DNA of 32,000 nt from Moraxellaceae bacterium (GTDB lineage: Bacteria; Pseudomonadota; Gammaproteobacteria; Pseudomonadales; Moraxellaceae), in the NCBI GenBank assembly GCA_030680295.1, contig JAUXVU010000018.1, positions 677,547-709,546 of the forward strand, in the 5' to 3' direction. Position numbers and translations under genes: made by a program. How positions within the stretch are numbered: the stretch's first letter is position 1; every line of letters starts with the position of its first letter. The notes beneath the pieces are model-generated. The model was not told where the DNA came from and made no database searches. It worked only from the letters and a program-made list of their open reading frames with translations. This document shows, in pieces, positions 11,373-29,652 of the stretch.

Positions 11373-11429
11373 TAAACCGCGTAAAAGCAACGCCTAGAAA
11401 CAACGCTTAAAAGCGATTAGGAACCAGAA

Positions 11430-14725: not shown

Positions 14726-15090
14726 TTGCTTATGTAACCGTTGGCACCAATGATATTGAAAAAGCCAAAGCCTTTTATCTAGATCTGTTCAGTGATTTTA
14801 AGGCCAGAATTCTGGTCGACATTGGTCGTCTGGCCTTAATTGGCCCATCAATGGGTAAACCCATGATTTCCGTTTGTGTTCCGCACAACCAAGAACCAGC
14901 CAATCCAGGCAACGGCAATATGATCGCGATTCCTGCTGGCTCACGCGAAAACGTTGATGCGCTGTATAACAAAGCCATCAGCTTAGGCGCTACTTGTGAA
15001 GGCAAACCAGGCGAGCGTATGCCCACCTTTTACGGTGGTTATATTCGCGACTTAGACGGCAATAAGTTAGCTTTTATTCATATGGGCTAA
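14722..15090 (+). CDS. VOC (glyoxalase/bleomycin-resistance/dioxygenase) family protein
   Basis: 122 aa. MIAYVTVGTNDIEKAKAFYLDLF... and C-terminal GGYIRDLDGNKLAF are typical of small VOC-fold proteins. ATGA overlap with the upstream lyase stop. Confidence 0.7.
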   Translation: MIAYVTVGTNDIEKAKAFYLDLFSDFKARILVDIGRLALIGPSMGKPMISVCVPHNQEPANPGNGNMIAIPAGSRENVDALYNKAISLGATCEGKPGERMPTFYGGYIRDLDGNKLAFIHMG

Positions 15091-15097
15091 AACCCAG

Positions 15098-15133
15098 TTG
15101 AATCAGTGGGCGCACTTGAGTATCATGCGCGCC
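15098..15133 (+). promoter_or_regulatory. Sigma70-type promoter with GC-rich discriminator for tRNA-Val
   Basis: TTGAAT (15098-15103), a 17-nt spacer, TATCAT (15121-15126), then gcgcgcc (15127-15133), ending 11 nt before the mature tRNA 5' end. A GC-rich discriminator is typical of stringently controlled stable-RNA promoters. Confidence 0.55.
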
Positions 15134-15143
15134 TACCCGAGAT

Positions 15144-15220
15144 AGGCGCATAGCTCAGTTGGTTAGAGCACCACCTTGACATGGTGGGGGTCAGCAGTTC
15201 GAGTCTGCTTGTGCCTACCA
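15144..15220 (+). tRNA. tRNA-Val (anticodon GAC), encoded CCA
   Basis: The cloverleaf folds by hand. Acceptor aggcgca/tgtgcct (one G-U), D arm gctc-agttggtt-agagc, anticodon arm ccacc-ttGACat-ggtgg, T arm agcag-ttcgagt-ctgct, then a-cca. The D and anticodon arms look the same as E. coli tRNA-Val(GAC), from memory. Confidence 0.95.
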
Positions 15221-15230
15221 AATTTCAGAA

Positions 15231-15267
15231 CCCGCAAAGCTACTGGCTTCGCGGGTTTTGTCGTTTT
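15231..15267 (+). terminator. Rho-independent terminator of tRNA-Val
   Basis: cccgcaaagc-tactg-gcttcgcggg (9 of 10 bp paired) followed by ttttgtcgtttt. Confidence 0.8.
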
Positions 15268-15310
15268 AGAGGTTATATTTTTACAGCTCATAAAGACGCA
15301 AAACTTTTCT

Positions 15311-15445
15311 TGGTGACCATCTGGTGACCAATTTGTGCCCAAACTTGCACTATAAAAGTGGGGGTCATTTTTAAGATCAGCCATTTTGTTCAAAAAACAA
15401 CCAAAAATGACCAGAACCATACTTTGTCACGATTGTGCGTGACCA
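15311..15445. repeat. Cluster of TGACC(A) motifs including a tandem TGGTGACCA pair; candidate integrase/excisionase arm-type sites of attL
   Basis: TGGTGACCA occurs at 15311-15319 and 15322-15330. ATGACCA is at 15407-15413, GTGACCA at 15439-15445, and an inverted GGTCA at 15363-15367. All lie in the non-coding 250 bp between the tRNA terminator and the first island gene. Confidence 0.45.
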
Positions 15446-15470
15446 AAATTAATCCAGCCTACTGTTTTTA

Positions 15471-15677
15471 TTAAGAATTATTGTCTTCTTTGATGTGCTC
15501 CATTAAATCGGAGACTTCACAATCAAAATAGGTACATAACTTATCAATTACGTCAGTCGTACAGTTATAGCCAGGAACACTAGAAACCTTTCTCAATGTG
15601 CTGCGATTTAGACCAGTCTCTTCAGCAACCTCGACTAACGTAATGTGCCTTTTTTCTTTAAAGGCTTTGTCGGCCAT
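15471..15677 (-). CDS. Cro/C1 (XRE, HTH_26-like) family transcriptional regulator
   Basis: MADKAFKEKRHITLVEVAEETGLNRSTLRKVSS...IDKLCTYFDCEVSDLMEH fits the short Cro/C1-type HTH pattern. AAAGAGG RBS just upstream of ATG 15677. Longer in-frame alternatives start at 15704 and 15752. Confidence 0.65.
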   Translation of the reverse strand: MADKAFKEKRHITLVEVAEETGLNRSTLRKVSSVPGYNCTTDVIDKLCTYFDCEVSDLMEHIKEDNNS

Positions 15678-15779
15678 CGCCTCTTTTACTCTAAATCTGA
15701 TCATAAAAAGCACCTTTAGGTCATTAAAAGCATCATTTGCTATTGACAACACCCATGACTAGGGCGAAACTAGTTCCAG

Positions 15780-15838
15780 ATGGTGCTTATAAACACCATT
15801 CGGGCATAAGAGAAATCATGTGGTGCAAATGATACCAC
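15780..15838. promoter_or_regulatory. Two related operator-like palindromes in the divergent HTH / excisionase control region
   Basis: ATGGTG-N8-CACCAT is at 15780-15799 and GTGGT-N9-ACCAC at 15820-15838. Both have TGGTGC left halves and share the TGGT/ACCA half-site with the TGGTGACCA repeats. A TTGACA hexamer lies at 15743-15748. Confidence 0.4.
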
Positions 15839-15889
15839 GATGAAAAATCCAATTGCTCTTCTATACGTCTGAATAGTTGGAGAACATCC

Positions 15890-16117
15890 ATGGGTAAATA
15901 TGAACTAATAACAGCTGAAGAACTTGGTGAGCGTCTTCGCTACAACCCCCGCTACATACTTCGTCAACTGCTTGATAACAAATTGTTTGAAGGCGTGCAT
16001 TACGTAAGGCCCTTTGGCGGAAAGAAAATTTTGTTTATATGGGAGAGAGTTTTTCAGGACCTAAATATTGTTGATGACAACGTTCCACTAGCTGCTGGAG
16101 GAACAATCAATGGCTAA
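15890..16117 (+). CDS. Excisionase / AlpA-like small DNA-binding protein
   Basis: 75 aa. ELITAEELGERLRYNPRYILRQL...GVHYVRPFGGKKILFIWERV resembles winged-helix excisionase-type proteins. GGAG lies 7 nt upstream. The 3' end overlaps the integrase start by 8 nt. Confidence 0.5.
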   Translation: MGKYELITAEELGERLRYNPRYILRQLLDNKLFEGVHYVRPFGGKKILFIWERVFQDLNIVDDNVPLAAGGTING

Positions 16118-17276
16118 TGTTCGAGCAAAGCCCAGCGGTAAGCTTTATTTTGATTTTAGGTACATGAATCAGCGTTGTCGTGAAACAACTGAGCTCTCAG
16201 ATACGGTTGCAAATCGTAAGCGACTTGAAAGCATCATGAAGAAGATCAGCGCAGAAATTATGCTTGGAACCTTTGATTACGAAGCTTACTTCCCAAATAG
16301 CAACATGGTTTCTAAAGTTAAAAAGCAAGCCTCCCCAAAGCCAACAGGCCTGCCTACTATTAATGAGTGCGCAACTACATGGTTAATTGAACATGAAATC
16401 GAGTGGAGAATTAACTATCGAAACGTCATTGTTGGCATTATCGAAAAGCATATTCGCCCACAACTAGGGGAGCTAACACTGTGTGATCTGTCTCGTGACG
16501 ATATCGTTAGATTTAGAAACCATCTCGCCAGACATAGAAGCTCAACTGGTGCCGCTTTAAAGCCTGCAACAATTAATCGAGTCATAACGGTATTAAAGGC
16601 AATCGTTGAGCAAGCATGCTTCGTGCACAAACTCCCTACTCCTTTTGAGCGGATTAAAAAACTCAAAGAGGAAAAGCGCTCGGTTGAGCCCTTCTCAATT
16701 GATGAAATGAACCGAATGTTAGCTGATGTACGAGCTGACTTTAGGGACTACCTCATCGTTAAATTTTTCACTGGTCTTCGAACCGCCGAAATTAATGGCT
16801 TACGCTGGAAATACGTCGACCTGGAACGCGGTGAAATCTTAATTCGTGAAACCTTCTGTAAGGGACGATTTGATTACACGAAAAACGATTACTCACAACG
16901 AGAAATCCGAATCACTACCATTGTGCGTGAGGCTTTGGAGCGTCAACTAAAAGTAACAGGTCACTTTGGGAAAGACGGCATCGTCTTTTGCACTAGAAAT
17001 GGCAATCCACTAGACGATCATAACTTCTGCAATCGTATCTGGAAGCCGATGTTAGAGGATCTGAACATCCCCTACCGACGGCCCTACAACACTCGACATA
17101 CCGCCGCCACGATCATGCTCGCCTCAGGTGAAAGCCCTGAATGGGTTGCTCGCCAGTTAGGTCATGCCAATACGCAGATGTTGTTCACGGTTTATAGCCG
17201 CTTTGTTCCAAATTTAACGCGTAATGATGGCAGCGCACTTGATCGCTTGCTAGCTAATACCATTCAGACTGCATAG
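16110..17276 (+). CDS. int: Tyrosine recombinase (phage-type integrase) with N-terminal arm-DNA-binding domain
   Basis: 388 aa. N-terminus KPSGKLYFDFRYMNQRCRETT is arm-binding (DUF3596-like). Catalytic residues sit in context: GLRTAEINGLRW (Arg), NTRHTAATIM (His-x-x-Arg), LGHANTQMLFTVYSRF (His, Tyr). GGAGG RBS lies 8 nt upstream. Confidence 0.9.
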   Translation: MANVRAKPSGKLYFDFRYMNQRCRETTELSDTVANRKRLESIMKKISAEIMLGTFDYEAYFPNSNMVSKVKKQASPKPTGLPTINECATTWLIEHEIEWRINYRNVIVGIIEKHIRPQLGELTLCDLSRDDIVRFRNHLARHRSSTGAALKPATINRVITVLKAIVEQACFVHKLPTPFERIKKLKEEKRSVEPFSIDEMNRMLADVRADFRDYLIVKFFTGLRTAEINGLRWKYVDLERGEILIRETFCKGRFDYTKNDYSQREIRITTIVREALERQLKVTGHFGKDGIVFCTRNGNPLDDHNFCNRIWKPMLEDLNIPYRRPYNTRHTAATIMLASGESPEWVARQLGHANTQMLFTVYSRFVPNLTRNDGSALDRLLANTIQTA

Positions 17277-17287
17277 GAGCGGACTTA

Positions 17288-17590
17288 ATGAAAGTTATTC
17301 ACTTAGATTTAGAACGTAAACGTCGCCAGCTTTCTTGTTCTCAGCAGCTTGTAGCGCGTATGGCCAAGTCTCTCTTGCAAACCTATGCAGTTAGCAAGGA
17401 TTTAGATCTATCGGTTCATTTTGGTTACGGCAAGCAGATGACTAATGAGCAGGCCATTACGATCTGGATTCTTGATGTCCTTCAGACCATGGACCAAGAG
17501 CTTGCTGACAAGATTTTTCCAATATTGTGCGACCGCTTTCAAACGAAGCTGAGCAGACTGCCAACACATATGCATGGTGGGGATATGTGA
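17288..17590 (+). CDS. Hypothetical protein (100 aa), first gene of a coupled pair
   Basis: AGGAG (17274-17278) lies 9 nt before the ATG. Stop TGA 17588-17590 overlaps the ATG of the next gene (ATGTGATG). I recognise no domain. Confidence 0.55.
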   Translation: MKVIHLDLERKRRQLSCSQQLVARMAKSLLQTYAVSKDLDLSVHFGYGKQMTNEQAITIWILDVLQTMDQELADKIFPILCDRFQTKLSRLPTHMHGGDM

Positions 17591-18558
17591 TGTTGGTATC
17601 TGTTGCTGACTTGGGAAATTACTTGAACAAGGATGTTCAGTTTTACGCGAAACTCGTTGGGCGTCGTATGTGTCGTAGTGATACGGGACATAACTTTTAT
17701 CGCCTACAGTTTATTGAAAACGGACAAGCTGTTGACGGCATTCTTTGGTGGAGCAGTCCCATCTATGCCCTAGTGGGGCAACTTGATCTGTCAGTGCCTC
17801 CACGTGTAGAGGTACTAGGTCATGTCGACGGCGATAAAAGCTCATTACGCATCCGCGTTAGCAACCTGTGTATCGCTTATCAGAGCTTAAAAATAGGTAA
17901 TAGCGCTTGGATGATACCCATCCAAGCGCTAGACGCTTACTTCACGCTCTATGGCTATCTGCAAAAGATGTCAAAAGGTGGCTTGGCAACCTTTATGTCG
18001 GCAGTGTTTTTAGATGAAGACATTACACCCGCTTATTTACGCTGCCGAGGGAGCGTGAATCATCACCATAAATTTATGGGCGGTCTATTAGTGCATAGTG
18101 TTCAGGTAGCTAATTTAGTTCAGGTTCAATCAATTTGCTTAGGGTTATCGCTAGAAGAAACCGAGCTCGGTATTGCTGGAGCACTTCTGCATGACTTAGG
18201 AAAAATTGAAGTAGTTGGCGAAGCCAATCCACGACCTAAAGACCCTGGCTTATTCTCGCATGAGGTCACGACAATTAAGCTTTTGGCGCCGCACTTAAAA
18301 CTATTAAAGGCTATCGATTCAAGGACTGCATGGACGATGGAGCACATCCTTCATCAGATGATCCCTGCTCAAAAATCAAAGATCGCTTCACTGGTCATTT
18401 GCGACCTGATACGAATGGCTGATCAGCTTTCTGCAGCGTCCAATAATAAAAAAGGTATTGATGACTTTTTAAGTATTGGAAAGCACTCGCAGCTACATCC
18501 TATAAAAATGGAAGCAATTCAAAAAAGACAATTAGCTCTATTTAATGAAGCGGTTTAA
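17590..18558 (+). CDS. OB-fold + HD-domain protein (YhaM-like 3'-5' exonuclease / metal-dependent phosphohydrolase architecture)
   Basis: 322 aa from ATG 17590 (the track ORF starts at 17527). The N-terminal ~95 aa follow the YhaM OB-fold pattern (QFYAKLVGRRMCRSDTGHNFYRLQFIENGQAVDGILWW). HD-domain metal ligands are HHHKFMGGLLVHSVQV and GALLHDLGKIE. Confidence 0.7.
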   Translation: MLVSVADLGNYLNKDVQFYAKLVGRRMCRSDTGHNFYRLQFIENGQAVDGILWWSSPIYALVGQLDLSVPPRVEVLGHVDGDKSSLRIRVSNLCIAYQSLKIGNSAWMIPIQALDAYFTLYGYLQKMSKGGLATFMSAVFLDEDITPAYLRCRGSVNHHHKFMGGLLVHSVQVANLVQVQSICLGLSLEETELGIAGALLHDLGKIEVVGEANPRPKDPGLFSHEVTTIKLLAPHLKLLKAIDSRTAWTMEHILHQMIPAQKSKIASLVICDLIRMADQLSAASNNKKGIDDFLSIGKHSQLHPIKMEAIQKRQLALFNEAV

Positions 18559-18589
18559 GTCCAGCTGAAGGCATGAAGTTCTTGGGTAT

Positions 18590-20237
18590 TCTCTAAGCTG
18601 CCTGTACGGCAGTGAACGAACTACACGCCAAAGCATTACTGAGCTTTACTTTCTAAGCTGCTTGTACGGCAGTGAACGAAGAAGTGCTGGCCGAGTTTGA
18701 CCGTTGCGATTTCTAAGCTGCCTGTACGGCAGTGAACCTAATTGGCTACGATCCGCACGAACTACACAATTTCTAAGCTGCCTGTACGGCAGTGAACGTC
18801 ATCTCTACGCCCCGTCATGACTTCGTGATTTTCTAAGCTGCCTGTACGGCAGTGAACATGCAAAGCGCCTAACTAAGCGATGGCCGCAATTTCTAAGCTG
18901 CCTGTACGGCAGTGAACTAGGTGACTACAACTTAACCGAGTTTCTAACATTTCTAAGCTGCCTGTACGGCAGTGAACTATGTAGCGCAGCGACGTGGCTT
19001 GTGGGGATTTTTCTAAGCTGCCTGTACGGCAGTGAACGATGAGAGCCGTGGGTTCTAATCCCACACTTATTTCTAAGCTGCCTGTACGGCAGTGAACCGC
19101 TCAAAACAGGCCGCTTGGGTGGCGCGTATTTTCTAAGCTGCCTGTACGGCAGTGAACTTCGGTATTCGACTATCATGCTCAATGCCTCGTTTCTAAGCTG
19201 CCTGTACGGCAGTGAACAAGAACGTCTCCGCGTGTGCCGGTAGGGTTAGTTTCTAAGCTGCCTGTACGGCAGTGAACTTGCTGAGTTGCAGCGACAACTT
19301 GCGGAACTGTTTCTAAGCTGCCTGTACGGCAGTGAACCAGTTGATCCTTATTAAATAACTCCATGAGTCTTTCTAAGCTGCCTGTACGGCAGTGAACCTA
19401 GGGCTTCTTGTGCAGTAGCAGCGATGGTATTTCTAAGCTGCCTGTACGGCAGTGAACTTCTAGTGGTGTCACTTTGTTGGCTCCTTTTGTTTCTAAGCTG
19501 CCTGTACGGCAGTGAACATGATTACCAAATGCAAATGCCCGCAGTGTGATTTCTAAGCTGCCTGTACGGCAGTGAACGAAACAGTCACCAGCGCCGTTAG
19601 AAGTGGCAATTTCTAAGCTGCCTGTACGGCAGTGAACATTGATAAATATCTTGGCGCGACATGGCGTCGTTTCTAAGCTGCCTGTACGGCAGTGAACGCG
19701 CTGTCATCAGCACTGGCTTGTTGTGGTACTTTCTAAGCTGCCTGTACGGCAGTGAACGAGTTCAATATGCCTTTGATCTATTTCAGAACTTTCTAAGCTG
19801 CCTGTACGGCAGTGAACATGGTAACTGGACAGGCGGACGCAAGGACGTTTTTCTAAGCTGCCTGTACGGCAGTGAACTTTCCACATGGGCGATGCCACCA
19901 TCAAAGCTATTTCTAAGCTGCCTGTACGGCAGTGAACGTAATAGCCGCCACCTGCGCGGCTATTTATTTTTTCTAAGCTGCCTGTACGGCAGTGAACCTA
20001 GAGCGAGAAGGCCAGCAACGCAGCGAGAATTTCTAAGCTGCCTGTACGGCAGTGAACAATCATCTGCATCATGGTTTCAGCGGCTTCTTTTTCTAAGCTG
20101 CCTGTACGGCAGTGAACGAAGCAAAGCGTAGGAAGTAGGCGCAGCACTTTTTCTAAGCTGCCTGTACGGCAGTGAACCCTTAGCGGTCGCTATGCTGATG
20201 CTGCTGTCATTTCTAAGCTGCCTGTACGGCAGTGAAC
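18590..20237 (-). CRISPR. Type I-F CRISPR array: 28 repeats of 28 nt, 27 spacers of 32 nt, transcribed on the minus strand
   Basis: Exact 60-nt periodicity. Minus-strand consensus GTTCACTGCCGTACAGGCAGCTTAGAAA is the canonical I-F repeat with the Cas6f hairpin CTGCC-GTACA-GGCAG. The leader-proximal repeat is 20210-20237. The two leader-distal repeats each carry one substitution (18590-18617 ...TTAGAGA; 18650-18677 ...GTACAAGCAG...). All 27 spacers are different. Confidence 0.98.
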
Positions 20238-20310
20238 TAGAGATATGATCTTATAAACTAATGATAATTATATAAAATCCGTAAGTTTCATACAAATACC
20301 ATTTTATAGA
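20238..20310 (-). promoter_or_regulatory. AT-rich CRISPR leader with candidate promoter and IHF-like site
   Basis: All elements are on the minus strand. A perfect TATAAT (plus coordinates 20267-20272) lies about 30 nt upstream of the first repeat, preceded at 17 nt by TTGTAT. TATCATTAGTTTA (20254-20266) matches the IHF consensus WATCAANNNNTTR with one mismatch. Confidence 0.45.
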
Positions 20311-20343
20311 AAAACAAAAAAAAAGCCCTCTATTACAAGGGCT
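20311..20343 (-). terminator. Rho-independent terminator downstream of cas6f
   Basis: On the minus strand, AGCCCT-tgtaatag-AGGGCT (plus coordinates 20324-20343) is followed by a run of 9 T, then G and 4 more T. Confidence 0.75.
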
Positions 20344-20366
20344 GCAGCACGCGATAAAAAAAAGGG

Positions 20367-20936
20367 TCAGAACCAAGGCACCGTTACTTTTTCACTTAGG
20401 CGACTCAAACCATACGAATTTAATTCCCCAAACGTGGGACTATCCATCAACGGTCCCTGCTCAACAAAAACCTTCATCACCTGTTTATTGCTCTGACTGG
20501 TCAACTGCAAAAATGGCAGCTTAAGAACGCGGGGCTTTTCCTCAAGTGACTTCATTAACGCCTCTTCATCTGTAATCCAACCTTTAATGGCAGATCTTCG
20601 ATATTTATTATGAGCGCTTTTTAGTTGTCTTCGAGCAAAGTAACGATGCTTGACAGCATTCGGGACAGGCAAGATCTCACTGCACTGACAGTAGTCTCTA
20701 AGCCCTTTAAGCCAATTTTCAGACATTAACTTCTGAAGGATCACAGCAGTACCATGAAGCCGGATCTGAGTGCCAAGGCTCTTCCCATCATCGGCATACT
20801 TGGGAAAGCTGACGCCAACCTTGCCCATAGCTATCTGCCCCAAAACCACATGTAGTTTGGAGCACAAGTTGTTCATCAAGAAGTTGGCATCAGCCTCTAG
20901 GTCAGGCAAGACCGTTATTTCAAGATAACTATCCAT
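20367..20936 (-). CDS. cas6f: CRISPR endoribonuclease Cas6f (Csy4)
   Basis: 189 aa. MDSYLEITVLPDLEADANFLMNNLCSKLHVVLGQ parallels the P. aeruginosa Csy4 N-terminus (MDHYLDIRLRPD...LMS.LFGKLH). It is the last gene of the cas operon, next to the leader. Confidence 0.9.
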   Translation of the reverse strand: MDSYLEITVLPDLEADANFLMNNLCSKLHVVLGQIAMGKVGVSFPKYADDGKSLGTQIRLHGTAVILQKLMSENWLKGLRDYCQCSEILPVPNAVKHRYFARRQLKSAHNKYRRSAIKGWITDEEALMKSLEEKPRVLKLPFLQLTSQSNKQVMKVFVEQGPLMDSPTFGELNSYGLSRLSEKVTVPWF

Positions 20937-20950
20937 AATACCCTGACTCC

Positions 20951-21955
20951 TTAACCAGCTTCACCAAATACGCCACCACGAATAAACATGGCCATTATGT
21001 AATGCTGTTGCTCCAATGAAGGCGTTATACCTTTTAAGACCCAACCATCAAGCAATTTATAAAAGTCCATATTCTCTCTTGGCTGGCGATAGGCCTTACC
21101 ACGATTGGTGACGGAGCCGTAGGGTTCAACAGCAATAGGCCCTACTTCTGTCGCTTGAGGATGCCAGGTGTCAATCGTGCGCAACGCATTGCCAATTTTT
21201 TGCGAGTGCATCGCAGCCACGCCATCTAACTGATAGAGAAACTTGCTTTTATCGCCTTTAGCGCCGCCCATTACCAACTCTTGCGATGGATAAACCGCTT
21301 GCCCTGCCCCCAGCTTGACATAAGCATTAACACTCAAGAGCGCAAAACTTTCTCCCGTCAGACCCTGCTTAATAACTTGCGCTAATTTTGCTAAATCACC
21401 CGTTGGCTCCACAAAATTACGCAGGTCAAATTGTTGGCCATTAAAAACCCAAATATCATTAGCGTGGCTAACATGGATTTCAACTGCCTCTGCACCCACC
21501 CGGTTACGCCACAAAAAACGACCATTAGCTATATTCACGGCATAACGACTGGCCAACTCGGTGAACTGGGTTTGTTGAGCATAGCCATTAATAATGTCAG
21601 CCAATGCCTTCTGATACTCAGGATCATTACAAGTAGAAGGCGTCGCCAAGTCACCAATAACTCTTAATGTAAAACTAACTTTAAGTGTGTCTTGCTCAAA
21701 CGGCAGAGCTGCGTTATCGACAGTTTGTAAATTGGCCTTTTGAACTTCGGCATCAACCTTTGCAGGGTCACTTGCCAAAGCTGACTTTAGCCGATTTGAA
21801 ATAGTGCCTCTTACCGCTTTTTCTTTAATCGATATTGGTGAAAAGCTTTTTGCATTACCGCGATCATTCCAATTGCCACTGGCCATGATGGCGTCTGAAT
21901 TTGCAAGCTTGGATTCAAAAGCCAGTACCGATGCAGTCTTAAGAGTGGTTGTCAT
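20951..21955 (-). CDS. csy3: Type I-F Cascade backbone subunit Cas7f (Csy3)
   Basis: 334 aa, with position and size as expected for Csy3. N-terminal LAFESKL...D and a C-terminal GGVFG-type ending are typical of the family. Confidence 0.88.
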
Positions 21956-21970
21956 AAGTAAGTTCCTTTT

Positions 21971-22960
21971 TTAGAAGTAAGTCAGTTCAGTTTCTGTGAG
22001 TTCAACTAAAGCAGCTTCCTGCTCCGGGTGTAGCTTTGGTGTGTTTTGTGTTGTGTTGGTTGCGCATAAATACCAAGGGCCTTGTTGCCGATAGCGCCAA
22101 ATAACGTCGCGCAGCTCAGGAACTCGGTGTGGACTTAACCACTGACCCACGCCATAAGCAGCCTCAACGAAACGAAATGGATATTGCGGATCACGGGCAT
22201 TGGCAACAGCACCAGAAGAATGCAGCGCTGAAATTGCCTTATAACCAGTAGTAATAGGCACCAAGTAACCTTTGGCTGGCTTAGGCATCAACTCCCACTC
22301 CGCAGCGTGCTCCGCTGTCGGCAAGTCAACACCCTCTGGCGCACTAGCGCGATACCTTAAAGCGGCAAAGTCCAACCAAGCATCAAGCATAGTGGCATTA
22401 GGCTGTGTCGTAATTAACTGCTCATAATGTTGCTTTAATAGCTCTGAGCGATCTGTGAGCAACCAACCCGGAAGCACTTTTCGCAGCAACTCACGACTTA
22501 TCGCTTGATCGTCGTCATTGCTATATAAACTCACGCCTTTGAGATGAATCACCTGACCACCTGCAAGCTTTTGTGTTTGCGAAAGAGAAATCAGTGCCTC
22601 AGTCAATTGATGCTGCTGGCTAGCGGTAAAAGGTTTGTTGGACTCCAAAATCAGGGAAACGGTAAGGTGCATTCTCCCTTCTTCAACAATGGGAGCTGTA
22701 TTACCCTCTTTAGTTAACGGGCTTCTAGTTAACGCAAAAACATAATCTCCCCAGCCACTCGGTTGATATGCTTGCACCTGATGGTCGTGACAAACGACGG
22801 CGCAACCCGTTAGTTCAATGCCAAACCTTTCTTGAATCTTGCGAGACAGTGCATGGGTGTACCCCAAGAAATGGGTAATGCCTGGAAAGCCGTAAGTTAG
22901 ACCAGCAATACAGTTAGCATTTTGGACTTTGATGCGCTCAAGTAAAATATAACTACTCAT
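21971..22960 (-). CDS. csy2: Type I-F Cascade subunit Cas5f (Csy2)
   Basis: 329 aa. ATGA overlap with the csy1 stop. Position and size are as in canonical I-F1 operons. Confidence 0.85.
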   Translation of the reverse strand: MSSYILLERIKVQNANCIAGLTYGFPGITHFLGYTHALSRKIQERFGIELTGCAVVCHDHQVQAYQPSGWGDYVFALTRSPLTKEGNTAPIVEEGRMHLTVSLILESNKPFTASQQHQLTEALISLSQTQKLAGGQVIHLKGVSLYSNDDDQAISRELLRKVLPGWLLTDRSELLKQHYEQLITTQPNATMLDAWLDFAALRYRASAPEGVDLPTAEHAAEWELMPKPAKGYLVPITTGYKAISALHSSGAVANARDPQYPFRFVEAAYGVGQWLSPHRVPELRDVIWRYRQQGPWYLCATNTTQNTPKLHPEQEAALVELTETELTYF

Positions 22961-24327
22961 AAAGCCTCCCTACTTTGTGCTCGATTGGTAGAAAACACAT
23001 TTGTCCCTAGCTCGTAATCTCGCAACCTAGGAGCGAAAAGCTTTGCCCAATGCCGGTGCTGTACTGTGCCAAACACTAGGCCGTCATTTTTGAGGGCATA
23101 ATTCAATTTATGGTTTAGCCAATCAGCAAAAGCCATGCAAATATCTTGCTGCCAGTTGTTGTTAGCTCTTTTTTGTTGAAACTGGAGGTCCTCGCACCAG
23201 GTATCGAGCCATAGCTGCTCAGCTGGTTTTAGTTTGTTATTCTGCAGGCTCCAACCAGCGTGCTCGATTAAGCCTTGAACTTCAGCCGCATAGTTCAGCA
23301 AAACATCAATAAGATCGTTTACATATGCGGCGATGTTTTGGCGGATCTCTAATGTGCTATCACGACCCTTTATGGCGAGCAAATACCGCTGTAACTCCTG
23401 AAAATCCCGCCATACTCGACGGTTAAATTCACGACCATAAAATATCGATTGTTCATTTTGAGGCGGTCTTAGCGTTGACTTCCAAGATGGCGGTGCACAG
23501 TTAAGCAGGTTCGTTTTACCGCCCCTCTGACTATTCAATTGAGAAATATTTTGTGGTTTAGAACCACCAAAGGTTTGAATTGCAGTATCCAAAAAACGAA
23601 CGTCAGGCTTGTCATGGTATTTGCCAGCCTTACGCGCATCTCGAATAGCTTTAGACTCATCACCATAGCGCACGGCAGATATTTTGCCGTTAAATTGATG
23701 CGCTAGAGACGACGCAAACACGGGACCTAGCAAATGGTACTGACCATCAGCTACCGGAAAATACAGCTGCTTAGCCAAGGTATGAGATGACAAGGCTTTA
23801 TCTGCCAAAGCCAACTTCAAGCCTTCAACCCACTCAGCGAGTTGAGAATGGTCTTCGGTGAATACAGCAAGTGCACTGAAATCGTTATCTGTTAATGACT
23901 GTGCAAGAGTGAGCCCGTTAAGCTCTAACAGAAGGAGCTTAGCAACATCTAATGCTGCTGCGCTCCCAACAGCATCAATCGCTAAGGTGGGTAAACTGGC
24001 TGTAACGAGATAATCCGCACCATCCATACTTTCAAGTGATAAGACACTGCTGCCTTTGGCATCGCCGTGAGTGAACTTCAACGCATGAGTAACAAGACTA
24101 ATTTGTTTTGCACGTTTTGCCGCATCATCTAACCAATTCCTAACATCAAACTGTTGGTTAATTTGCAGGATCTGAGGAGAAAATTCCGTATTGATTTGTG
24201 CTTTTTTAACATCGTCGTCAACACCTTTCAGCGCATTCTCTAGCTCTTTCTCTATTGGTTCCAGCTTCTGCAGCCTACGTTTGTCTATGTAATCAGCTAT
24301 TAATGCTGCTAATCCTTCATATTGCAT
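22957..24327 (-). CDS. csy1: Type I-F Cascade large subunit Cas8f (Csy1)
   Basis: 456 aa. Blocks shared with P. aeruginosa Csy1: VTHALKFTHGDAKGSS, AAALDVAKLL, HTLAKQLYFPV..GQYHLLGPVF, FGGSKPQNISQLNSQRGG. Confidence 0.9.
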   Translation of the reverse strand: MQYEGLAALIADYIDKRRLQKLEPIEKELENALKGVDDDVKKAQINTEFSPQILQINQQFDVRNWLDDAAKRAKQISLVTHALKFTHGDAKGSSVLSLESMDGADYLVTASLPTLAIDAVGSAAALDVAKLLLLELNGLTLAQSLTDNDFSALAVFTEDHSQLAEWVEGLKLALADKALSSHTLAKQLYFPVADGQYHLLGPVFASSLAHQFNGKISAVRYGDESKAIRDARKAGKYHDKPDVRFLDTAIQTFGGSKPQNISQLNSQRGGKTNLLNCAPPSWKSTLRPPQNEQSIFYGREFNRRVWRDFQELQRYLLAIKGRDSTLEIRQNIAAYVNDLIDVLLNYAAEVQGLIEHAGWSLQNNKLKPAEQLWLDTWCEDLQFQQKRANNNWQQDICMAFADWLNHKLNYALKNDGLVFGTVQHRHWAKLFAPRLRDYELGTNVFSTNRAQSREAL

Positions 24328-24342
24328 AACACCTCCTTGAAG

Positions 24343-27300
24343 TTATAACTCTTGATAAACGCCCAAAGTTGGGTGGTAATGCCATTTTTCGGCATCATGT
24401 TTTACTCTCAAGCGGATCTCGCCAAATTGCTTGCTGACCTCAGCAAGTGTGAGTCCCATTTGTTCTGCTCGCTGTTGATAAACAGACAACGCATCAAGCG
24501 CAAACCAAGCATGGTTGCCTTGAGTTGGCTCCCATATATCGGTTACAAAGTTTTCTGCTTCGATATATTCCAGCGGCCAGGAAGCATCATTAATTCGCAT
24601 GAATGCCGCCTCGTCTTCTTCCGATAACATCAGACAGTAAGGCTCATCAGGGGACGACTTACGAAATGGCGTGCGTCTCTGCAACTCAGCACTCCAGCTG
24701 GCGTCATGCTCCCACCACCTCGCAGCATAGTCGGATGGCCACACAACGTTATTGGGAAATGGCATATCGGGTCGGGGCAACAAATTCTGTAATAGTGAAA
24801 AGTGCTCAAACAACACTAAGCTGCTTAATATCTTAGATGGGAGCAATGATGGCTGAGTTATTCGCGGTAACGCATTAATAGCCAAATAGGCCTCTTCAGG
24901 CAGAATATCCCTCAGATCATGACTATCGAGCCGTAAATCATTGCGTTCAAAGCCGGGCTGACAGTAGGCAGGCTTGAGTTTTCCAAAACGATCAGTGGAT
25001 CCTTTTAGTGCTCTGAAATTTTGTGAAAAAATTAAGAGATTATCGCTATTAACTGCTTGCTGGCGGTGTCGCTGAATCCGCCCAGCTAACTGAATCAGTG
25101 AGCGCATAGAGCTAGGCTCAGCAATGGCCCAGTCATAATCATGATCCCGGCCGACCTCAGCAACAGAAGTTGCCAACACCACGAACACATGATTGTCTTG
25201 AGGATGCTGCGCTAATGCGCGGCTGATTTCGGCTTGCTGCCAAAGCGCTGAGGGATTATAGCGAGTCAATGCTGCATCTAATTTTTGCTCAATAGCCGAG
25301 CGCACCGCCAATGGATACTGGCTGTGATAAACACAATAATGAATATGAAAATTTTCAGGCACAGGCATTTTTAGTAGCTGCTTAGCCACCGCCACCATAG
25401 GATTAATGTTAGCCATACGCACTAGGCCGATTGACACTTTCTGAGCAGTAGGGGCTACCTGGTGGTGCTGATTGTGTAGCTGACAAATACTCTGCTGAAT
25501 CATGACTGCCAGCTGGTTAATAATCAGTTCTGGATTTTTACTTGTGGGGGTTACACCCAGCAGGCTCGCTTTACGCAGCACAGGCTGAGTTGCCAGCGAC
25601 TTAACCCGCTTTTCAACAAATGACATGTGCTGCAGCATCAACTGATTTTTATTAGCACACTCCGCTTTTACAGCGGTGAATTCATCAAACCAAGCGCAGA
25701 TAACAGGTGACTGTGACCGACCACCAGCATTCACAGCATTGAAGTGTTCTCTACCATTGCGGTAAGCCTCAAACAATGCGCACACCATTACCGGAGGCAA
25801 TGTTGCAGATGAGAACAGCACTTTGGCACCTAGCATTCCGGCCCAGTTCACCAGTCGGCATAGCGCTGGCAAATCTGCCGTATCAAAATCATCAGGCTCA
25901 TCCAAAACCAAGTCAGCCGTCAGCAAGCGAAGCATAGGGGCAATTTGTTTACCACCACGGACACCCTCCGTGGCTGGCATTAGGTGATCAATAGTGCTTA
26001 CCAATACGGGTGCGCTCACCAGCTGATTTAGCTTTGGACTACTGTTTAACCAGCCCTTTAATCGGCCATCGTACAAACTTCCCTGATAGCTAACGTATAG
26101 GTGTTCCGCGATGGGGTCAGCCAACGACTCACTACCTGTAGCGCTACTACTGACAGCTAACTCTGCTTGTAAGGCCTGCTTACTAATGTCATGCAATTGC
26201 TGAACAGCTGCTGAACCAATTAATACCGCTAGGTCATCATCTGCTAGGTGTAGTCGCTCTTTTAGTGCGTCGCCTGTTTGCAATGTTAAGGTTCTTAGGC
26301 CCAGTGCCACACTAAAACGGCATCCCAATTTTTCATCCGCTAAGCCATACATAATTCGAGCATTGGCAAAGGTTTTACCTTTCCCGGTACTGGCCATGTT
26401 GATACCAAAAAAACCTTGATTGACGCTGCTTTCCTTTACCGAACAAGCCAAGTCATAGGCTTTATCCTGCCAGCGAAACTTATCGAGCGTTGCACGTTGC
26501 TTGAAGCCTTTATGCCGTGTGATGGATGGCAATGTATTTTTTAGGGTCGGCAAACTTTTTGCTAATAAGAAGGAGTGGTGGCTAACACCGACATTATGCT
26601 CATCAAGTTTTTGATTCAGGGCTTTGCTTTTGCGATCAGAATTCGCATATGACTGATAGGAAGGATCTTGCCACTTTGCTTCAGGCTTTTGAGCCGAGTA
26701 ATAGTGGTCAGCCAGCATGAGTGCTAGGCGTGCGATATGACTGGTAAAGCGTTGCTCGAACCAATCGTGTTCAAACAGTCTGTGGCAATTTAGAGCTCTT
26801 GTTGCGATTTCACTGGCTTTTTTTCGCCAAGATGAACTAAGAAATGGCGTGCCATTAACGAAAAACCAATTTTGATTACGTCGGTGCTGATCCGCGGGAT
26901 CCAAACTGTTTACGGAATTCCATAACACATTAAAGTCATCCGATAGCCAACCCGTTATAGAGATTAATGAGGGAGATACATTTGAGCTTTTAGGAGAGAA
27001 AACAGGAAGACGATGATGGGATACGATGAGCCAAGCGACCAATCTTGAAACCGGAGTCAAACCATCAAAAGGCGCTAGATTAGTCTGCTCAGGGGCGTCC
27101 TTATGAAGCTGGGCTAAAACGCTGTGTTCAATATTTTCGGTAGTGTTTGTTAAATCAGTAAGCCATTCTTTATCCGTTTTGCCAGCAGCAAATGCCTGAA
27201 ACAATCGTAGAGATACCCATTCATGCCGATAAGGCTCATAACCCGGCGTTTTTACTTTTGGGTCTATTTTTTCCTGAAATAGTTGATTGGCTTTGCCAAA

Positions 27301-27672
27301 ATCATGAAACAAACCAGCCAAACCAGACAATAAAGCAATAACCTCGTTGTTGTGCCAACTGTTTTCATCATTACTACGCAGAATGTTTCGCAACGTCATA
27401 TTGGTTGGTGTGGCACCATCAATGTTGAATTTACGCTGATTACCCACTACCCATAACAACTCGGTATGATTTTTACTGCGGATCCAATGACAGGCCACAG
27501 CAGTATTGCGCCGTGCCGACTTTTTCAACAGTTTGCGTAATACATCAAGCCCTTGCAATGTTATTGGCGTTTGCCAGGTTCGGTCTCCTCGACGCTCAGC
27601 AAACTGGTCTATGATCCGTCTTGTTTCAATAAGGGCATTTTTCGAGCACTGCGATACCAGCATAATGTTCAT
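24343..27672 (-). CDS. cas3: Cas2-Cas3 fusion (Cas2/3f) nuclease-helicase
   Basis: 1109 aa. The N-terminal Cas2 domain MNIMLVSQCSKNALIETRRIIDQFAERRGDRTWQTPIT...SARRNTAVACHWIR is nearly colinear with P. aeruginosa Cas2/3. HD motif LFHDFGK, helicase Walker A ASTGKGKT and DExD-type VLDEPDD are present. Confidence 0.95.
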   Translation of the reverse strand: MNIMLVSQCSKNALIETRRIIDQFAERRGDRTWQTPITLQGLDVLRKLLKKSARRNTAVACHWIRSKNHTELLWVVGNQRKFNIDGATPTNMTLRNILRSNDENSWHNNEVIALLSGLAGLFHDFGKANQLFQEKIDPKVKTPGYEPYRHEWVSLRLFQAFAAGKTDKEWLTDLTNTTENIEHSVLAQLHKDAPEQTNLAPFDGLTPVSRLVAWLIVSHHRLPVFSPKSSNVSPSLISITGWLSDDFNVLWNSVNSLDPADQHRRNQNWFFVNGTPFLSSSWRKKASEIATRALNCHRLFEHDWFEQRFTSHIARLALMLADHYYSAQKPEAKWQDPSYQSYANSDRKSKALNQKLDEHNVGVSHHSFLLAKSLPTLKNTLPSITRHKGFKQRATLDKFRWQDKAYDLACSVKESSVNQGFFGINMASTGKGKTFANARIMYGLADEKLGCRFSVALGLRTLTLQTGDALKERLHLADDDLAVLIGSAAVQQLHDISKQALQAELAVSSSATGSESLADPIAEHLYVSYQGSLYDGRLKGWLNSSPKLNQLVSAPVLVSTIDHLMPATEGVRGGKQIAPMLRLLTADLVLDEPDDFDTADLPALCRLVNWAGMLGAKVLFSSATLPPVMVCALFEAYRNGREHFNAVNAGGRSQSPVICAWFDEFTAVKAECANKNQLMLQHMSFVEKRVKSLATQPVLRKASLLGVTPTSKNPELIINQLAVMIQQSICQLHNQHHQVAPTAQKVSIGLVRMANINPMVAVAKQLLKMPVPENFHIHYCVYHSQYPLAVRSAIEQKLDAALTRYNPSALWQQAEISRALAQHPQDNHVFVVLATSVAEVGRDHDYDWAIAEPSSMRSLIQLAGRIQRHRQQAVNSDNLLIFSQNFRALKGSTDRFGKLKPAYCQPGFERNDLRLDSHDLRDILPEEAYLAINALPRITQPSLLPSKILSSLVLFEHFSLLQNLLPRPDMPFPNNVVWPSDYAARWWEHDASWSAELQRRTPFRKSSPDEPYCLMLSEEDEAAFMRINDASWPLEYIEAENFVTDIWEPTQGNHAWFALDALSVYQQRAEQMGLTLAEVSKQFGEIRLRVKHDAEKWHYHPTLGVYQEL

Positions 27673-28646
27673 AGTTCGCCACCATGCACTATGGCGATAT
27701 CTTTCAGGCTGTCGATGATGAAATCTAATGCTTCGGCTTGTTGAAAGTTAGTAATACAACTTTGCCGAAACTCCTGATCATCTTGGCCAGACATTGCACT
27801 GATGAAAGCTTGAGGCAACACCAAAGCGTCTTTGATAAGGTCTGCGGCATCAAACACAAGGCCACCGCGGCGAGTTTTACCATGTAACACTGAAAAGCCA
27901 TGAGGCAAACCTAAAACCCAAGTTGCTGTAGCTCCCAAGCCATAGGCTAAATAGTTACCGTGATCTAGAAAGCGATTAGCTGGATCAATACCGCTTCCAC
28001 CTTTGGCGCGCGTAAAGCTGTCGTCATGCGCTAAGGTATTACAGGCAATTTTATACAGTAACTTGGTCAAGCGAGCTTCTGCCAACATAAGTGGCTGGGT
28101 ACCATCTACGCCATCAACATCTTGTTTAAAGCGTAATAATGCTGAATCTAATTGACTTACACTGACCACAAAACCGTTATCAATAAATGACTTATTTTTA
28201 AGCCAGTGCTTCAACGTGAAATCAATCCTAAGCTGCTGAATAGTCTTAGCTGCCTGCAGCCTTTTACTATCCACAGGCCAAAACCTCAACCATTGCTGCA
28301 AATATTCACATGGACGGTACTCACTCTGCGGAGTAAACCAAGCCACCTCAGCTTCAACATCGTTTACGCTGAATAATGGAGTACCACCACCACCGCAGAA
28401 CCCCACTAAAACACCGGCTCGCGCCAACTCCCGCATTGCAGCCTGGGTAACAGACGTACCAGTTCCTAACAACATGCACGTTGTATTGGCGATAGGAATA
28501 TTCCAATAAAGTGATTGCTTACCCTCATCAGTTACGTACTCAACTCGGCCTCCATTAACAAGCACGCGACAGTGCTGCAAGTAATAGACATTAGCTCGCT
28601 TTGAGTGAAGGATACTTTTAAGGTCAGATGGTGAAATATCACTCAT
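27669..28646 (-). CDS. cas1: CRISPR integrase Cas1 (I-F / Ypest subtype)
   Basis: MSDISPSDLKSILHSKRANVYYLQHCRVLVNGGRVEYVTDEG...WNIPIANTT...GTGTSVTQAAMRELARAGVLVGFCGGGGTPLF closely parallels I-F Cas1. Start placed at MSDIS (28646) by that alignment; the track start is 28658. ATGA overlap with the cas2-3 start. Confidence 0.93.
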   Translation of the reverse strand: MSDISPSDLKSILHSKRANVYYLQHCRVLVNGGRVEYVTDEGKQSLYWNIPIANTTCMLLGTGTSVTQAAMRELARAGVLVGFCGGGGTPLFSVNDVEAEVAWFTPQSEYRPCEYLQQWLRFWPVDSKRLQAAKTIQQLRIDFTLKHWLKNKSFIDNGFVVSVSQLDSALLRFKQDVDGVDGTQPLMLAEARLTKLLYKIACNTLAHDDSFTRAKGGSGIDPANRFLDHGNYLAYGLGATATWVLGLPHGFSVLHGKTRRGGLVFDAADLIKDALVLPQAFISAMSGQDDQEFRQSCITNFQQAEALDFIIDSLKDIAIVHGGEL

Positions 28647-28690
28647 AAAACAGTCCATGTTTTTTATGTTGATGCTCTAATTTTCTTATT

Positions 28691-28845: not shown

Positions 28846-29277
28846 TTACATGCCAGCCATCTTCTCCAGGTACAGCCTAACTTTGACTATGCCAACAAGG
28901 CGGTACTCCAGCATGACTTGGAGTGGCGACAGCTTGTTGAATGCGACGTTAGGAAATTTGATCCATTGATAAACGATGTCACGGTCGTGTGGCAAAAGTA
29001 GTCGTAGATTTTTGTGAATTGAAAACAGATGCCCTACCCGATCTAAGGTATCGATGTTGTTTGGGATTGGCGTGCCTCTTCGAAGATTTGCTAATCGTTT
29101 CCGTGAGCCTTCGTTAAAACCCAACAAACTTAGTTGCTCGGCATCTGAAAGCGCCCAATGATCAAATAGCTTCATAACCGCTTTTGAAATCTGTGCACGA
29201 GCAACTGGGTCAGCAAAGTTGGCCGGAGACAAGGCTGTGCTCTTTTCACTAGACAATCTGTTTTCTGTCAGCGCCAT
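28846..29277 (-). CDS. Xre-like HTH + DUF2384 (ParS/MbcA-type antitoxin-like) protein, no cognate RES toxin gene adjacent
   Basis: 143 aa. The middle region LSDAEQLSLLGFNEGSRKRLANLRRG...IDTLDRVGHLFSIHKNLRLL and C-terminal WIKFPNVAFNKLSPLQVMLE..LVGIVKVRLYLE follow the pattern of Xre/ParS/MbcA antitoxins of RES-Xre modules. Recognised from memory only. Confidence 0.55.
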   Translation of the reverse strand: MALTENRLSSEKSTALSPANFADPVARAQISKAVMKLFDHWALSDAEQLSLLGFNEGSRKRLANLRRGTPIPNNIDTLDRVGHLFSIHKNLRLLLPHDRDIVYQWIKFPNVAFNKLSPLQVMLEYRLVGIVKVRLYLEKMAGM

Positions 29278-29400: not shown

Positions 29401-29652
29401 CTAAAGTGCCAAATACCACCCTAGTGACAAGTGCTCTTTAACTGACCCGATGTAGTTCATTGGTTCTAAGAGGATATCGAGTGTGTTTATTGGGAGGTCA
29501 TAGAAAACATCCTTGATTTCATAAACCTCCCCTTGTGAATGAAGGCGTATGCATGCGCCCTCCTGCAATACAAAAGGCAGTTCTGTGTCATATGCCATCA
29601 TGACAGGCTGATCGTTATCAGTAAGCATGATGCGAGCAATGGTTTTGATCAT
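29401..29652 (-). CDS. Hypothetical protein (83 aa)
   Basis: AAGGA lies 7 nt upstream of ATG 29652 (MIKTIARIML...); the track ORF extends to 29715. No recognisable domain. Same strand as, and 123 nt upstream of, the antitoxin-like gene. Confidence 0.4.
   Translation of the reverse strand: MIKTIARIMLTDNDQPVMMAYDTELPFVLQEGACIRLHSQGEVYEIKDVFYDLPINTLDILLEPMNYIGSVKEHLSLGWYLAL

Follow-up and report, generated by a model that had tools for sequence, protein, structure and literature searches.

We analysed a 32,000-nucleotide stretch of a Moraxellaceae bacterium genome (GenBank assembly GCA_030680295.1, contig JAUXVU010000018.1, positions 677,547 to 709,546 of the forward strand; hereafter the window), in which two genes, orf100 and a gene for a protein with an OB fold and an HD domain (the HD gene), lie between a tyrosine integrase gene (int) and the array of a type I-F clustered regularly interspaced short palindromic repeats (CRISPR)-Cas system. 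We found that the HD gene is very probably a life-cycle gene of the island backbone, and neither cargo nor a CRISPR accessory, in a previously undescribed family of tRNA-inserting elements with interchangeable defence cargo. This placement was drawn from the synteny of the HD gene with int in 26 of 28 loci, from the lack of anything conserved downstream of it, and from a break in homology at its stop codon.

Relatives were gathered by a genome scan, contig look-ups and a metagenome scan, and all loci were re-annotated with hidden Markov models of the window's own genes. This yielded 28 non-redundant loci (numbered with the prefix L) in which an HD gene of the clade (profile E <= 1e-47) is preceded by a stretch long enough for the upstream genes to be assessed; the metagenome pattern scan contributed just 4 true family loci, as the HDLGK pattern is generic. 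Twenty-six of the loci share a single layout, consisting of a tRNA gene (Val, Lys, Met, Pro or Arg), an HTH_26 gene on the minus strand, a gene for a xis-like protein of ~78 amino acids (aa), an integrase with an Arm-DNA-bind_2 domain, an optional small open reading frame (ORF) and the HD gene, with most sister islands located 200-400 bp from the tRNA gene. The two exceptions are L019, in which the HTH gene is followed directly by the HD gene (708-2159), and a second HD copy in L005 (9321-10951) that lacks xis-int; both look like decayed islands or like cases in which the HD gene is useful without an integrase. The hosts are Moraxellaceae (the metagenome-assembled genome (MAG) of the window, Perlucidibaca and Paraperlucidibaca), Nevskiales (Hydrocarboniphaga, Solimonas, Nevskia and Panacagrimonas), Salinisphaeraceae/Spectribacter (Salinisphaerales) and Rhodanobacteraceae. 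By contrast, among ~35 weaker YhaM-like matches (E >= 1e-33), 13 of them on IMG/VR viral contigs, an integrase was found in L055 alone. Since tblastn against phage records returned nothing, the same search against plasmids returned two weak HDOD-like matches, and IMG/VR held no close relative, just generic YhaM-like or HD proteins without an integrase, the family appears specific to chromosomal islands. Pairwise identities of Int and the HD protein correlate (Spearman 0.52 over 231 island pairs), with the HD protein evolving faster than Int (mean pairwise identity 34% versus 50%).

Beyond the HD stop codon, the islands have little in common. All-versus-all clustering of the ORFs within 6 kb past the HD gene produced no family present in more than 4 of 25 islands, and the family that reached this number was an insertion sequence (IS) transposase. 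Where the window carries a I-F CRISPR-Cas system with canonical cas1, cas2-3 and csy1-4, L002 carries a ParS-like antitoxin, a WYL regulator and a type I restriction-modification (RM) system, L026 carries KfrA and AbiEi, L030 has a P450/ferredoxin cluster, and the remaining islands contain unknown genes. The original prediction had placed the orf100-HD pair in the variable cargo slot of the island; the comparison contradicts this, as the two are the last conserved backbone genes and the cargo starts after the HD stop. The survey of neighbourhoods linked the HD gene to an integrase (26 of 28 loci) and to a small partner gene (17 of 28), while an association with CRISPR did not prove general.

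Three close comparisons locate the end of the backbone. In L031, a locus from a related genome with the same tRNA-Val site and flank, the DNA is 87% identical to window positions 13585-18558, ending exactly at the HD stop, after which unrelated genes and no array follow. In L085, the flank is 96% identical (up to 15271), xis and the 5' half of int have diverged, and 87% identity resumes from inside int (16654) and continues across orf100, the HD gene and the 31-nt junction into the first repeats of the array; at the protein level, its integrase, small protein and HD protein are 71%, 81% and 90% identical to those of the window. Different island variants thus occupy one tRNA-Val site in near-identical flanks, and no empty tRNA-Val site was found among the 4 contigs that share the glyoxalase flank. 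L002, inserted at a tRNA-Lys gene, encodes an integrase of only 41% identity to that of the window next to an orf100 protein of 98% and an HD protein of 86%, with DNA homology beginning at 17076 in the 3' end of int. For both L002 and L085, DNA identity to the window of 85-87% is confined to the segment from the int 3' end through the HD gene. These alignments show that orf100, the HD gene and the catalytic end of int are inherited as one block, around which the HTH gene, xis, the int N-terminus (an att-specific left half) and the cargo are exchanged. The near-identical orf100-HD genes in tRNA-Val and tRNA-Lys islands suggest that islands residing in one genome recombine or undergo gene conversion with each other.

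Several genomes indeed contain more than one island. At least two islands at different tRNA genes were observed in single genomes for L002 and L031 (MAG GCA_964569335.1), L012 and L014 (Solimonas sp. SE-A11), and L006 and L007, while L017 and L023 lie on one contig ~46 kb apart and L005 has two HD copies 10 kb apart. In six loci from different genera (L008, L009, L012, L013, L018 and L020), a tRNA-Met gene lies ~200-400 bp upstream of the HTH gene on the opposite strand, with its 5' end facing the island, an arrangement that is unusual for tRNA-targeting integrases.

The HD protein is a full-length relative of the nuclease YhaM. As a single sequence it scored marginally against Pfam HD (23.5 bits, cut-off 22) and gave weak partial matches to YhaM and MobH. 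A profile built from an alignment of 45 HD-family homologues matched the solved Bacillus subtilis YhaM (9h3f) from end to end, with residues 17-323 aligned onto 10-315 at E 1.3e-25 (the single sequence reached E 5e-6), and the Staphylococcus aureus Cbf1/YhaM (9o7t) at E 4e-17. An AlphaFold2 (AF2) model based on the same alignment had a mean predicted local distance difference test (pLDDT) of 91.8 and showed an OB barrel (about residues 15-110) that a helical linker connects to an HD domain, itself helical. Upon searching the PDB with Foldseek, we obtained YhaM as the best match of the model, with the OB part resembling RPA and the anticodon-binding OB folds of class II aminoacyl-tRNA synthetases; the Pfam tRNA_anti-codon OB model matched 15 of the 45 members. 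The original prediction, which saw an OB fold joined to a complete HD metal site as the architecture of YhaM, was thus borne out by profile, model and structure search alike.

The conservation pattern agrees with a metal-dependent enzyme. Invariant columns of the alignment comprise W53, H159 (within HHH 158-160), G164-G165-L166, H169, H201-D202, K205, R215, H224 and D278, with H235 conserved in 98% of members, and both the HHHKFMGGLLVH and LLHDLGK motifs fall within invariant columns. The HD protein therefore carries a complete two-metal HD site. W53 aligns with W51 of YhaM, a nucleic-acid-binding residue (PMC12107432). YhaM/Cbf1 has the same length and the same order of elements, an OB fold with a Trp followed by an HH(H)...H...HD...H...D metal site, and the chemistry of the HD protein is, by this likeness, probably metal-dependent hydrolysis of single-stranded nucleic acid. 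The two nonetheless differ in identity (~21%), in host (Firmicutes versus Gammaproteobacteria), in a set of family-specific invariant residues (R153, S155, GGLL, V209-G210, R215 and H235), and in setting, since the HD gene never stands alone as a housekeeping gene but closes an integrase operon on a mobile island, where it commonly has a small partner. The score against the NCBIfam YhaM equivalog NF010007 was 25.5 bits at a cut-off of 460, and no tyrosine column exceeded 56% conservation. The family is moderately large, with 235 clusters at 50% identity (E <= 1e-30) among 1.84 billion representatives. Several homologues are annotated by the Joint Genome Institute (JGI) as '3'-5' exoribonuclease'.

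A likeness to the HD core of MobH-type relaxases, also proposed earlier, held as a distant link and did not extend to membership. Both MobH motifs, 3H and HD as defined in PMC6736028, are present (HHH 158-160 and HDLGK 201-205), and matching the alignment with hhalign to the N-terminus of the IncC MobH relaxase gave a probability of 89% and E 2e-6 over 81 columns only, which cover these two motifs. The scores against Pfam TraI_2 PF07514 (13.4 bits, cut-off 23.9) and NCBIfam MobH NF041494 (15.7 bits, cut-off 200) remained below threshold and involved only residues 155-176 (~21 residues); such sub-threshold matches recurred in 41 and 43 of the 45 members, respectively. What is shared with the TraI_2 domains of MobH proteins (TraI of the Neisseria gonorrhoeae gonococcal genetic island (GGI) and TraI/MobH of IncC/SXT) is the order of a 3H motif, GGLxxH and HDxGK and the association with mobile elements. 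MobH proteins are, however, 850-990 aa long, with a disordered middle and a TraI_2_C domain, and their 3H motif lies at about residue 55-95, which leaves no space for a preceding OB fold, whereas the 322-aa HD protein has an OB fold and ends after the HD domain. They are further linked to a coupling protein or type IV secretion system (T4SS), while the HD protein has neither of these, nor an equivalent of Y212/H. The HD protein is hence a YhaM relative at superfamily level and a member of neither curated family.

The small partner is optional. A small ORF (91-126 aa) occupies the slot between int and the HD gene in 17 of 28 islands and is missing from 11; where present, it ends no more than a few bases from the HD start codon (an ATGA-type overlap or a 2-nt gap), and where absent, the HD gene is coupled equally tightly to the int stop with all catalytic residues intact. 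Proteins of orf100 type are those of the Moraxellaceae islands, while 110-126-aa ORFs hold the same slot in Nevskiales and Rhodanobacteraceae; the two types are homologous by hhalign (probability 94.7%, E 6e-8). Their common core consists of the invariant N53 and L88 and the nearly invariant L41 and A56, and orf100-type proteins share a C-terminal RLPxHxHGG tail. As stated in the original prediction, orf100 has no recognisable domain: Pfam, NCBIfam, PADLOC and PHROGs gave zero matches, and a profile search of 5.8 billion proteins retrieved 16 clusters, every one labelled 'hypothetical'. The AF2 model of orf100 showed 4-5 helices at low confidence (pLDDT 65), and Foldseek found no PDB match under E=1. 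Despite the lack of a family match, orf100 can be taken as a real gene, since dN/dS was low (0.05-0.09 against two sister islands, with 0.12-0.13 for the HD gene); both genes are under purifying selection. The small proteins form a fast-evolving helical family. Because the catalytic residues of the HD protein are intact in islands without the small gene, the small protein is a partner that some lineages have and others do without, rather than an obligate antidote. The earlier idea of a coupled pair with fixed stoichiometry accordingly survives in part: the two genes are co-inherited across a conserved tight junction, while the absence of the small gene from 11 of 28 islands that keep a catalytically intact HD protein weakens the stoichiometry.

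Within the window (Table 1), the genes from xis to HD form a compact operon, and all statements on its sequence that had been made beforehand (ORF coordinates, AGGAG, ATG/TGA overlap, 31-nt gap and motifs) were confirmed. The int stop codon TAG (17274-17276) is overlapped by an AGGAG (17275-17279) located 8 nt before the orf100 ATG (17288), and the orf100 TGA (17588-17590) shares its A with the HD ATG at 17590, a one-base ATGA overlap within ATGTGATG (17585-17592). An upstream GTG at 17527 is an alternative HD start in the window; we assigned the start to the ATG, since homologues begin at the same MLV. On the plus strand from the xis start to the HD stop, we detected no sigma-70-like promoter, and no terminator except one weak hairpin inside int. 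The xis-like protein gave no Pfam match; sister islands have a homologue (phmmer E 1e-14 to 1e-26) directly upstream of int. The HTH_26 protein, whose gene keeps its place and direction in almost every sister island, is presumed to be the repressor or switch of the island. The integrase was assigned to the IntBPP-1 subgroup after the scheme of Smyshlyaev et al. (PMC8138268), and as it has an Arm-DNA-bind_2 domain, we read the repeats downstream of the tRNA gene as probable arm-type sites. On the cargo side, the trailer (first) repeat of the array lies at 18590-18617 (Rfam), the leader is on the cas6f side, and the two repeats nearest to the HD gene are degenerate, marking the trailer; the cas operon matched the Pfam families Cas_Csy4/3/2/1, Cas3_I-F_Cas2 and Cas_Cas1.

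Table 1. Features of the island in the window, with positions counted from the first nucleotide of the window.
Feature	Position	Strand	Role or context	Evidence
tRNA-Val(GAC)	15144..15220	+	Integration target; island starts just downstream	ARAGORN, Rfam
attL-side non-coding arm	15226..15446		Probable arm-type integrase sites	Repeat search
tRNA terminator hairpin	15226-15260		Within attL-side arm	
Tandem TGGTGACCA repeats	15311-15332		Within attL-side arm	
Inverted repeat GGTCATTTTT/AAAAATGACC	15363-15412		Within attL-side arm	
GTGACCAA	15439-15446		Within attL-side arm	
Cro/CI-type HTH_26 regulator, 77 aa	15471..15704	-	Divergent from xis-int operon	Pfam HTH_26 E 8e-12
xis/AlpA-like small protein, 75 aa	15890..16117	+	First operon gene; stop overlaps int start	
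Tyrosine integrase, 388 aa, IntBPP-1 subgroup	16110..17276	+		Pfam Arm-DNA-bind_2 (DUF3596) E 7e-24, Phage_integrase E 5e-20
orf100, 100 aa	17288..17590	+	Small all-helical partner protein	Sequence, AF2 model
YhaM-type OB-fold/HD protein, 322 aa	17590..18558	+	Last backbone gene	Pfam HD, family profile, AF2, Foldseek
Backbone/CRISPR-trailer junction, 31 nt	18559..18589		Also present in sister island L085	
Type I-F CRISPR array, 28 repeats	18590..20237	-	Cargo	Rfam CRISPR-DR4, 28 matches
Canonical I-F cas operon	20367..28658	-	Cargo; cas6f/csy4, cas7f/csy3, cas5f/csy2, cas8f/csy1, cas2-3, cas1	

As the HD gene is translationally coupled and no internal promoter was detected, its product is probably made only alongside Xis and Int, that is, at excision, and because of this joint production its substrate would most plausibly be the DNA of the island itself, at the time of excision or later. 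YhaM is an Mn-dependent 3' deoxyribonuclease specific for single-stranded DNA (ssDNA) that assembles on ssDNA and is required for the processing of incoming ssDNA in transformation (PMC12107432), and the TraI_2 domain of MobH makes a hydrolytic cut in oriT ssDNA next to a hairpin, for which the 3H and HD motifs are needed and in which no stable covalent intermediate is formed (PMC6736028). By analogy with these enzymes, we tentatively favour the reading that the HD protein is an ssDNA nuclease or nickase that processes excised island DNA for transfer or replication. In such a scheme, the divergent Cro/CI-like regulator would face an operon of xis, int, the small gene and the HD gene, with cargo beginning right after the HD stop. 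The protein, predicted by its model to be a two-metal OB/HD hydrolase of YhaM type, would bind single-stranded nucleic acid by its OB fold and hydrolyse phosphodiester bonds at its HD site; hydrolytic, Mn/Co-dependent ssDNA cleavage as in MobH is a plausible activity for an HD nuclease in an excision operon, and since the family has no conserved tyrosine, classical covalent relaxase chemistry is unlikely. By nicking or trimming one strand, the HD protein could permit transfer via a helper conjugation system, as with the hydrolytic MobH TraI_2, or rolling-circle amplification, whose greater-than-unit-length products Int might resolve at attP into unit circles. The small helical protein, co-inherited yet dispensable in ~40% of islands, may act as a lineage-specific accessory or specificity subunit that tunes the HD protein. 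A more ambitious version, which we hold to be doubtful, would make the HD protein a tyrosine-free hydrolytic initiator of transfer or rolling-circle amplification, and the sole conserved enzyme besides the recombinase, in an unrecognised family of minimal tRNA-targeting 'carrier' islands for defence cargo, with unit circles restored by the integrase; it would be a living intermediate between YhaM and MobH.

A number of observations weigh against this role in processing island DNA. The conserved part of every island lacked any oriT-like site, nic motif, coupling protein, T4SS or replication gene, no coupling protein or T4SS gene lies within 10 kb in any island, and no conserved hairpin or nic candidate was found. 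Likewise, no attR was found, neither in the window as a repeat of the tRNA 3' end nor as a repeat of at least 14 nt within 10 kb of 18 loci, and hence the island end and the excised form are not definable. The HD protein is closer to the exonuclease YhaM than to MobH and fails both curated thresholds; a processive 3' exonuclease degrades rather than nicks, and a hydrolytic nickase cannot re-ligate, so that transfer would need an extra step. The HD gene is also retained without an integrase in L019 and in the second copy of L005, suggesting that it is useful or tolerated alone, and its faster evolution fits a conflict or defence gene as well. A mobilisation or relaxase-like function, one of three suggestions of the original prediction, therefore stays the most attractive reading of the HD protein, tempered by the failed MobH membership, the missing oriT and the absent conserved tyrosine.

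Short palindromic repeats do occur 10-70 nt past the HD stop in Nevskiales and Rhodanobacteraceae islands, of the GGTAATACC type in L009, L010, L011, L012 and L026 and of the GGAACGGTTCC type in L014, L017, L023 and L034, whereas the lineage of the window has no such repeats. The repeats of L026 closely precede a KfrA_N-like gene, for which they probably serve as operator; a role as an origin or an oriT-like site could be considered too.

Among the alternatives, the HD protein might be a constant, island-encoded nuclease for defence or competition against phages, plasmids, rival islands or host defence, with the small protein regulating or targeting it, which we regard as unlikely, though as the strongest of the alternatives. 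The cargo is rich in defence genes (I-F CRISPR-Cas, type I RM, AbiEi, WYL regulators and a ubiquitin-like/ThiF system), the HD protein and especially the small protein evolve fast, the HD gene is kept without an integrase in L019 and L005, and the HD protein weakly resembles Cas3 HD models. Its position is, however, invariant while true defence cargo is swapped around it, its coupling to xis-int behind a CI-like switch without a promoter of its own would be an odd design for a sentinel, and the protein has no sensor or partner domains. PADLOC-DB 2.0 gave no system-component match, just weak partial matches of the HD protein to the HD regions of Cas3b (E 1.5e-3) and Cas10 (0.03), in line with the earlier statement that no described defence system could be named. 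An addiction pair akin to toxin-antitoxin (TA) systems, in which the small protein inhibits a toxic HD nuclease so as to stabilise the integrated island, we judge improbable. The small gene comes first with overlapping stop and start codons, the two genes are co-inherited, the RLPxHxHGG tail of orf100-type proteins could reach the metal site, and Foldseek suggested a very weak, non-significant resemblance of orf100 to epsilon antitoxin; against this, 11 of 28 islands lack the small gene while keeping every catalytic residue of the HD protein, known TA families in Pfam, NCBIfam, PADLOC and PHROGs are unmatched, and separate TA-like genes are already among the cargo.

A small accessory gene upstream of a relaxase gene is a common layout. 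The orf100-HD order fits it, and together with the HHH and HD motifs, the GGLLxH signature common to both families and the weak TraI_2 matches in 41 of 45 members, it would suit a bona fide truncated MobH relaxase with a nearby oriT, one of the cases listed beforehand as refuting the original proposal. We nevertheless consider this very improbable, given the missed TraI_2 and NCBIfam MobH cut-offs, the alignment over 81 columns to proteins with no room for an OB fold, and the absence of a TraI_2_C domain, an adjacent coupling protein, a Tyr/His equivalent to Y212 and an oriT candidate. Next to nothing speaks for a role in the I-F CRISPR-Cas system as an accessory for trimming the ends of CRISPR RNA (crRNA) or prespacers, as had been hypothesised from the window. 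The HD stop is indeed 31 nt from the trailer repeat, L085 has the same junction, and the distant island L036 has a Cas_NE0113 gene nearby; yet the array follows the HD gene in the window and L085 only, the module recurs in ~25 other islands beside unrelated cargo and no CRISPR, the array is missing behind the HD gene of the sister L031 despite the shared site, and the HD gene, a member of the integrase operon, runs convergently to the array, so that this role is effectively refuted. It is just as hard to credit that the HD gene is a plain housekeeping 3'-5' exoribonuclease of YhaM/Cbf1 type beside the island, another of the cases named beforehand as overturning the proposal. Full-length YhaM homology and the JGI labels agree with it, whereas the score far below the equivalog cut-off, a clade defined by its integrase linkage, several copies per genome at different tRNA sites, and a position inside the island relative to the chromosomal flank do not; synteny and score together refute it.

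The backbone resembles that of integrative and mobilizable elements (IMEs) and other minimal islands (Vibrio mobilizable genomic islands (MGIs), Salmonella genomic island 1 (SGI1) with MpsA/MpsB, and streptococcal IMEs), as well as phage-inducible chromosomal islands (PICI/PICMI), which likewise combine a small backbone, made up of a regulator, xis and int plus one or two genes for DNA processing, with a tRNA site and swappable cargo, and which also show a divergent repressor/xis-int switch, several related islands per genome and mosaic modules. Those elements use an HUH, tyrosine-recombinase-like or Rep-type relaxase or a primase-helicase where the present, putatively mobile islands have a YhaM-type OB/HD nuclease, and no oriT and no genes for packaging or helper exploitation were recognised in the latter. 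The integrase has the same Arm-DNA-bind_2, SAM-like and catalytic domains as IntBPP-1 integrases of the phages BPP-1, Gifsy-2 and Stx2a, whereas here it belongs to non-phage islands and is coupled to the small gene-HD pair.

Within the library searched, we found no published account of the module for YhaM with an island or integrase, for an OB-fold/HD mobilizable element or for DUF3596. What is new here is that a nuclease of the YhaM/MobH superfamily has been recruited into the core of a family of integrative islands; we found no paper reporting such a backbone enzyme for minimal islands. The finding opens a way into a so far uncharacterised island backbone and into the origin and mechanism of HD-type relaxases, and is not a new defence system beside CRISPR. 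If the HD protein processes island DNA, it would represent a new type of enzyme for mobilisation or replication, a stand-alone OB-HD nickase, and would form an evolutionary bridge from the Firmicute ssDNA exonuclease YhaM, which acts in transformation, to the MobH relaxases of SXT, IncC and the GGI. The missing covalent intermediate of MobH relaxases is an open puzzle, and an intermediate between YhaM and MobH would explain both the origin of HD-type relaxases and how they work without one. Should the HD protein instead turn out to be a fixed nuclease that serves defence or addiction, the defence catalogue would gain an effector of OB-HD type together with its new small partner. The five-gene module is furthermore a practical marker for islands that shuttle I-F CRISPR-Cas, type I RM and abortive infection (Abi) systems between tRNA sites of environmental Gammaproteobacteria, and because cargo begins exactly at the HD stop, discovery of such cargo is straightforward.

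Some further observations concern the cargo. Just past cas1, the window contains an orphan Xre/MbcA/ParS-type antitoxin-like gene (28846-29277, minus strand) without an adjoining RES-type toxin gene and an unknown ORF of 104 aa (29401-29715, minus strand). In L002, homologues of the two (11011-11445 and 19024-19275), with 47% and 43% identity, lie on either side of the WYL/type I RM cargo, with the ParS-like gene abutting the HD gene, and these shared bracketing genes suggest that whole defence cassettes (CRISPR-Cas versus RM) are swapped between 'framework' genes. The distal part of the island carries umuD (Peptidase_S24) and umuC (IMS) at 29803-31611 on the plus strand, and in the Paraperlucidibaca wandonensis locus L005 (~2953-4798) umuDC of 67-76% DNA identity also follows an HD gene; error-prone polymerase V thus seems to be a recurrent cargo of these islands. 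Defence-like genes were also seen on the tRNA side, with a ThiF/Multi_ubiq/BubE ubiquitin-like system between tRNA-Arg and the HTH gene in L026 and L027, and with SNF2, N6_N4 methylase, zeta toxin and ResIII genes in L035 (1-7472) and a Cas_NE0113 gene in L036 (575-1792), which suggests tandem islands or cargo on both sides.

Single loci showed a few other features. In L085, the junction is followed by two repeats and then by an IS3-like transposase gene, and in L013, from a Rhodanobacter MAG, the HD gene is split (9710-10678), with its OB-fold N-terminus as a separate 53-aa ORF, owing to a frameshift, a pseudogene or an assembly error. In the window, the array is transcribed toward the HD 3' end and no terminator-like site was found between them on either strand (18559-20366), so that read-through of the crRNA precursor could run antisense into the HD gene. 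Finally, the chromosomal flank (11430-14725, plus strand) holds two translationally overlapped genes, one for an OvoA-type 5-histidylcysteine sulfoxide synthase and one for a PatB-type C-S lyase, which make up an ovothiol-type biosynthesis pair unrelated to the island.

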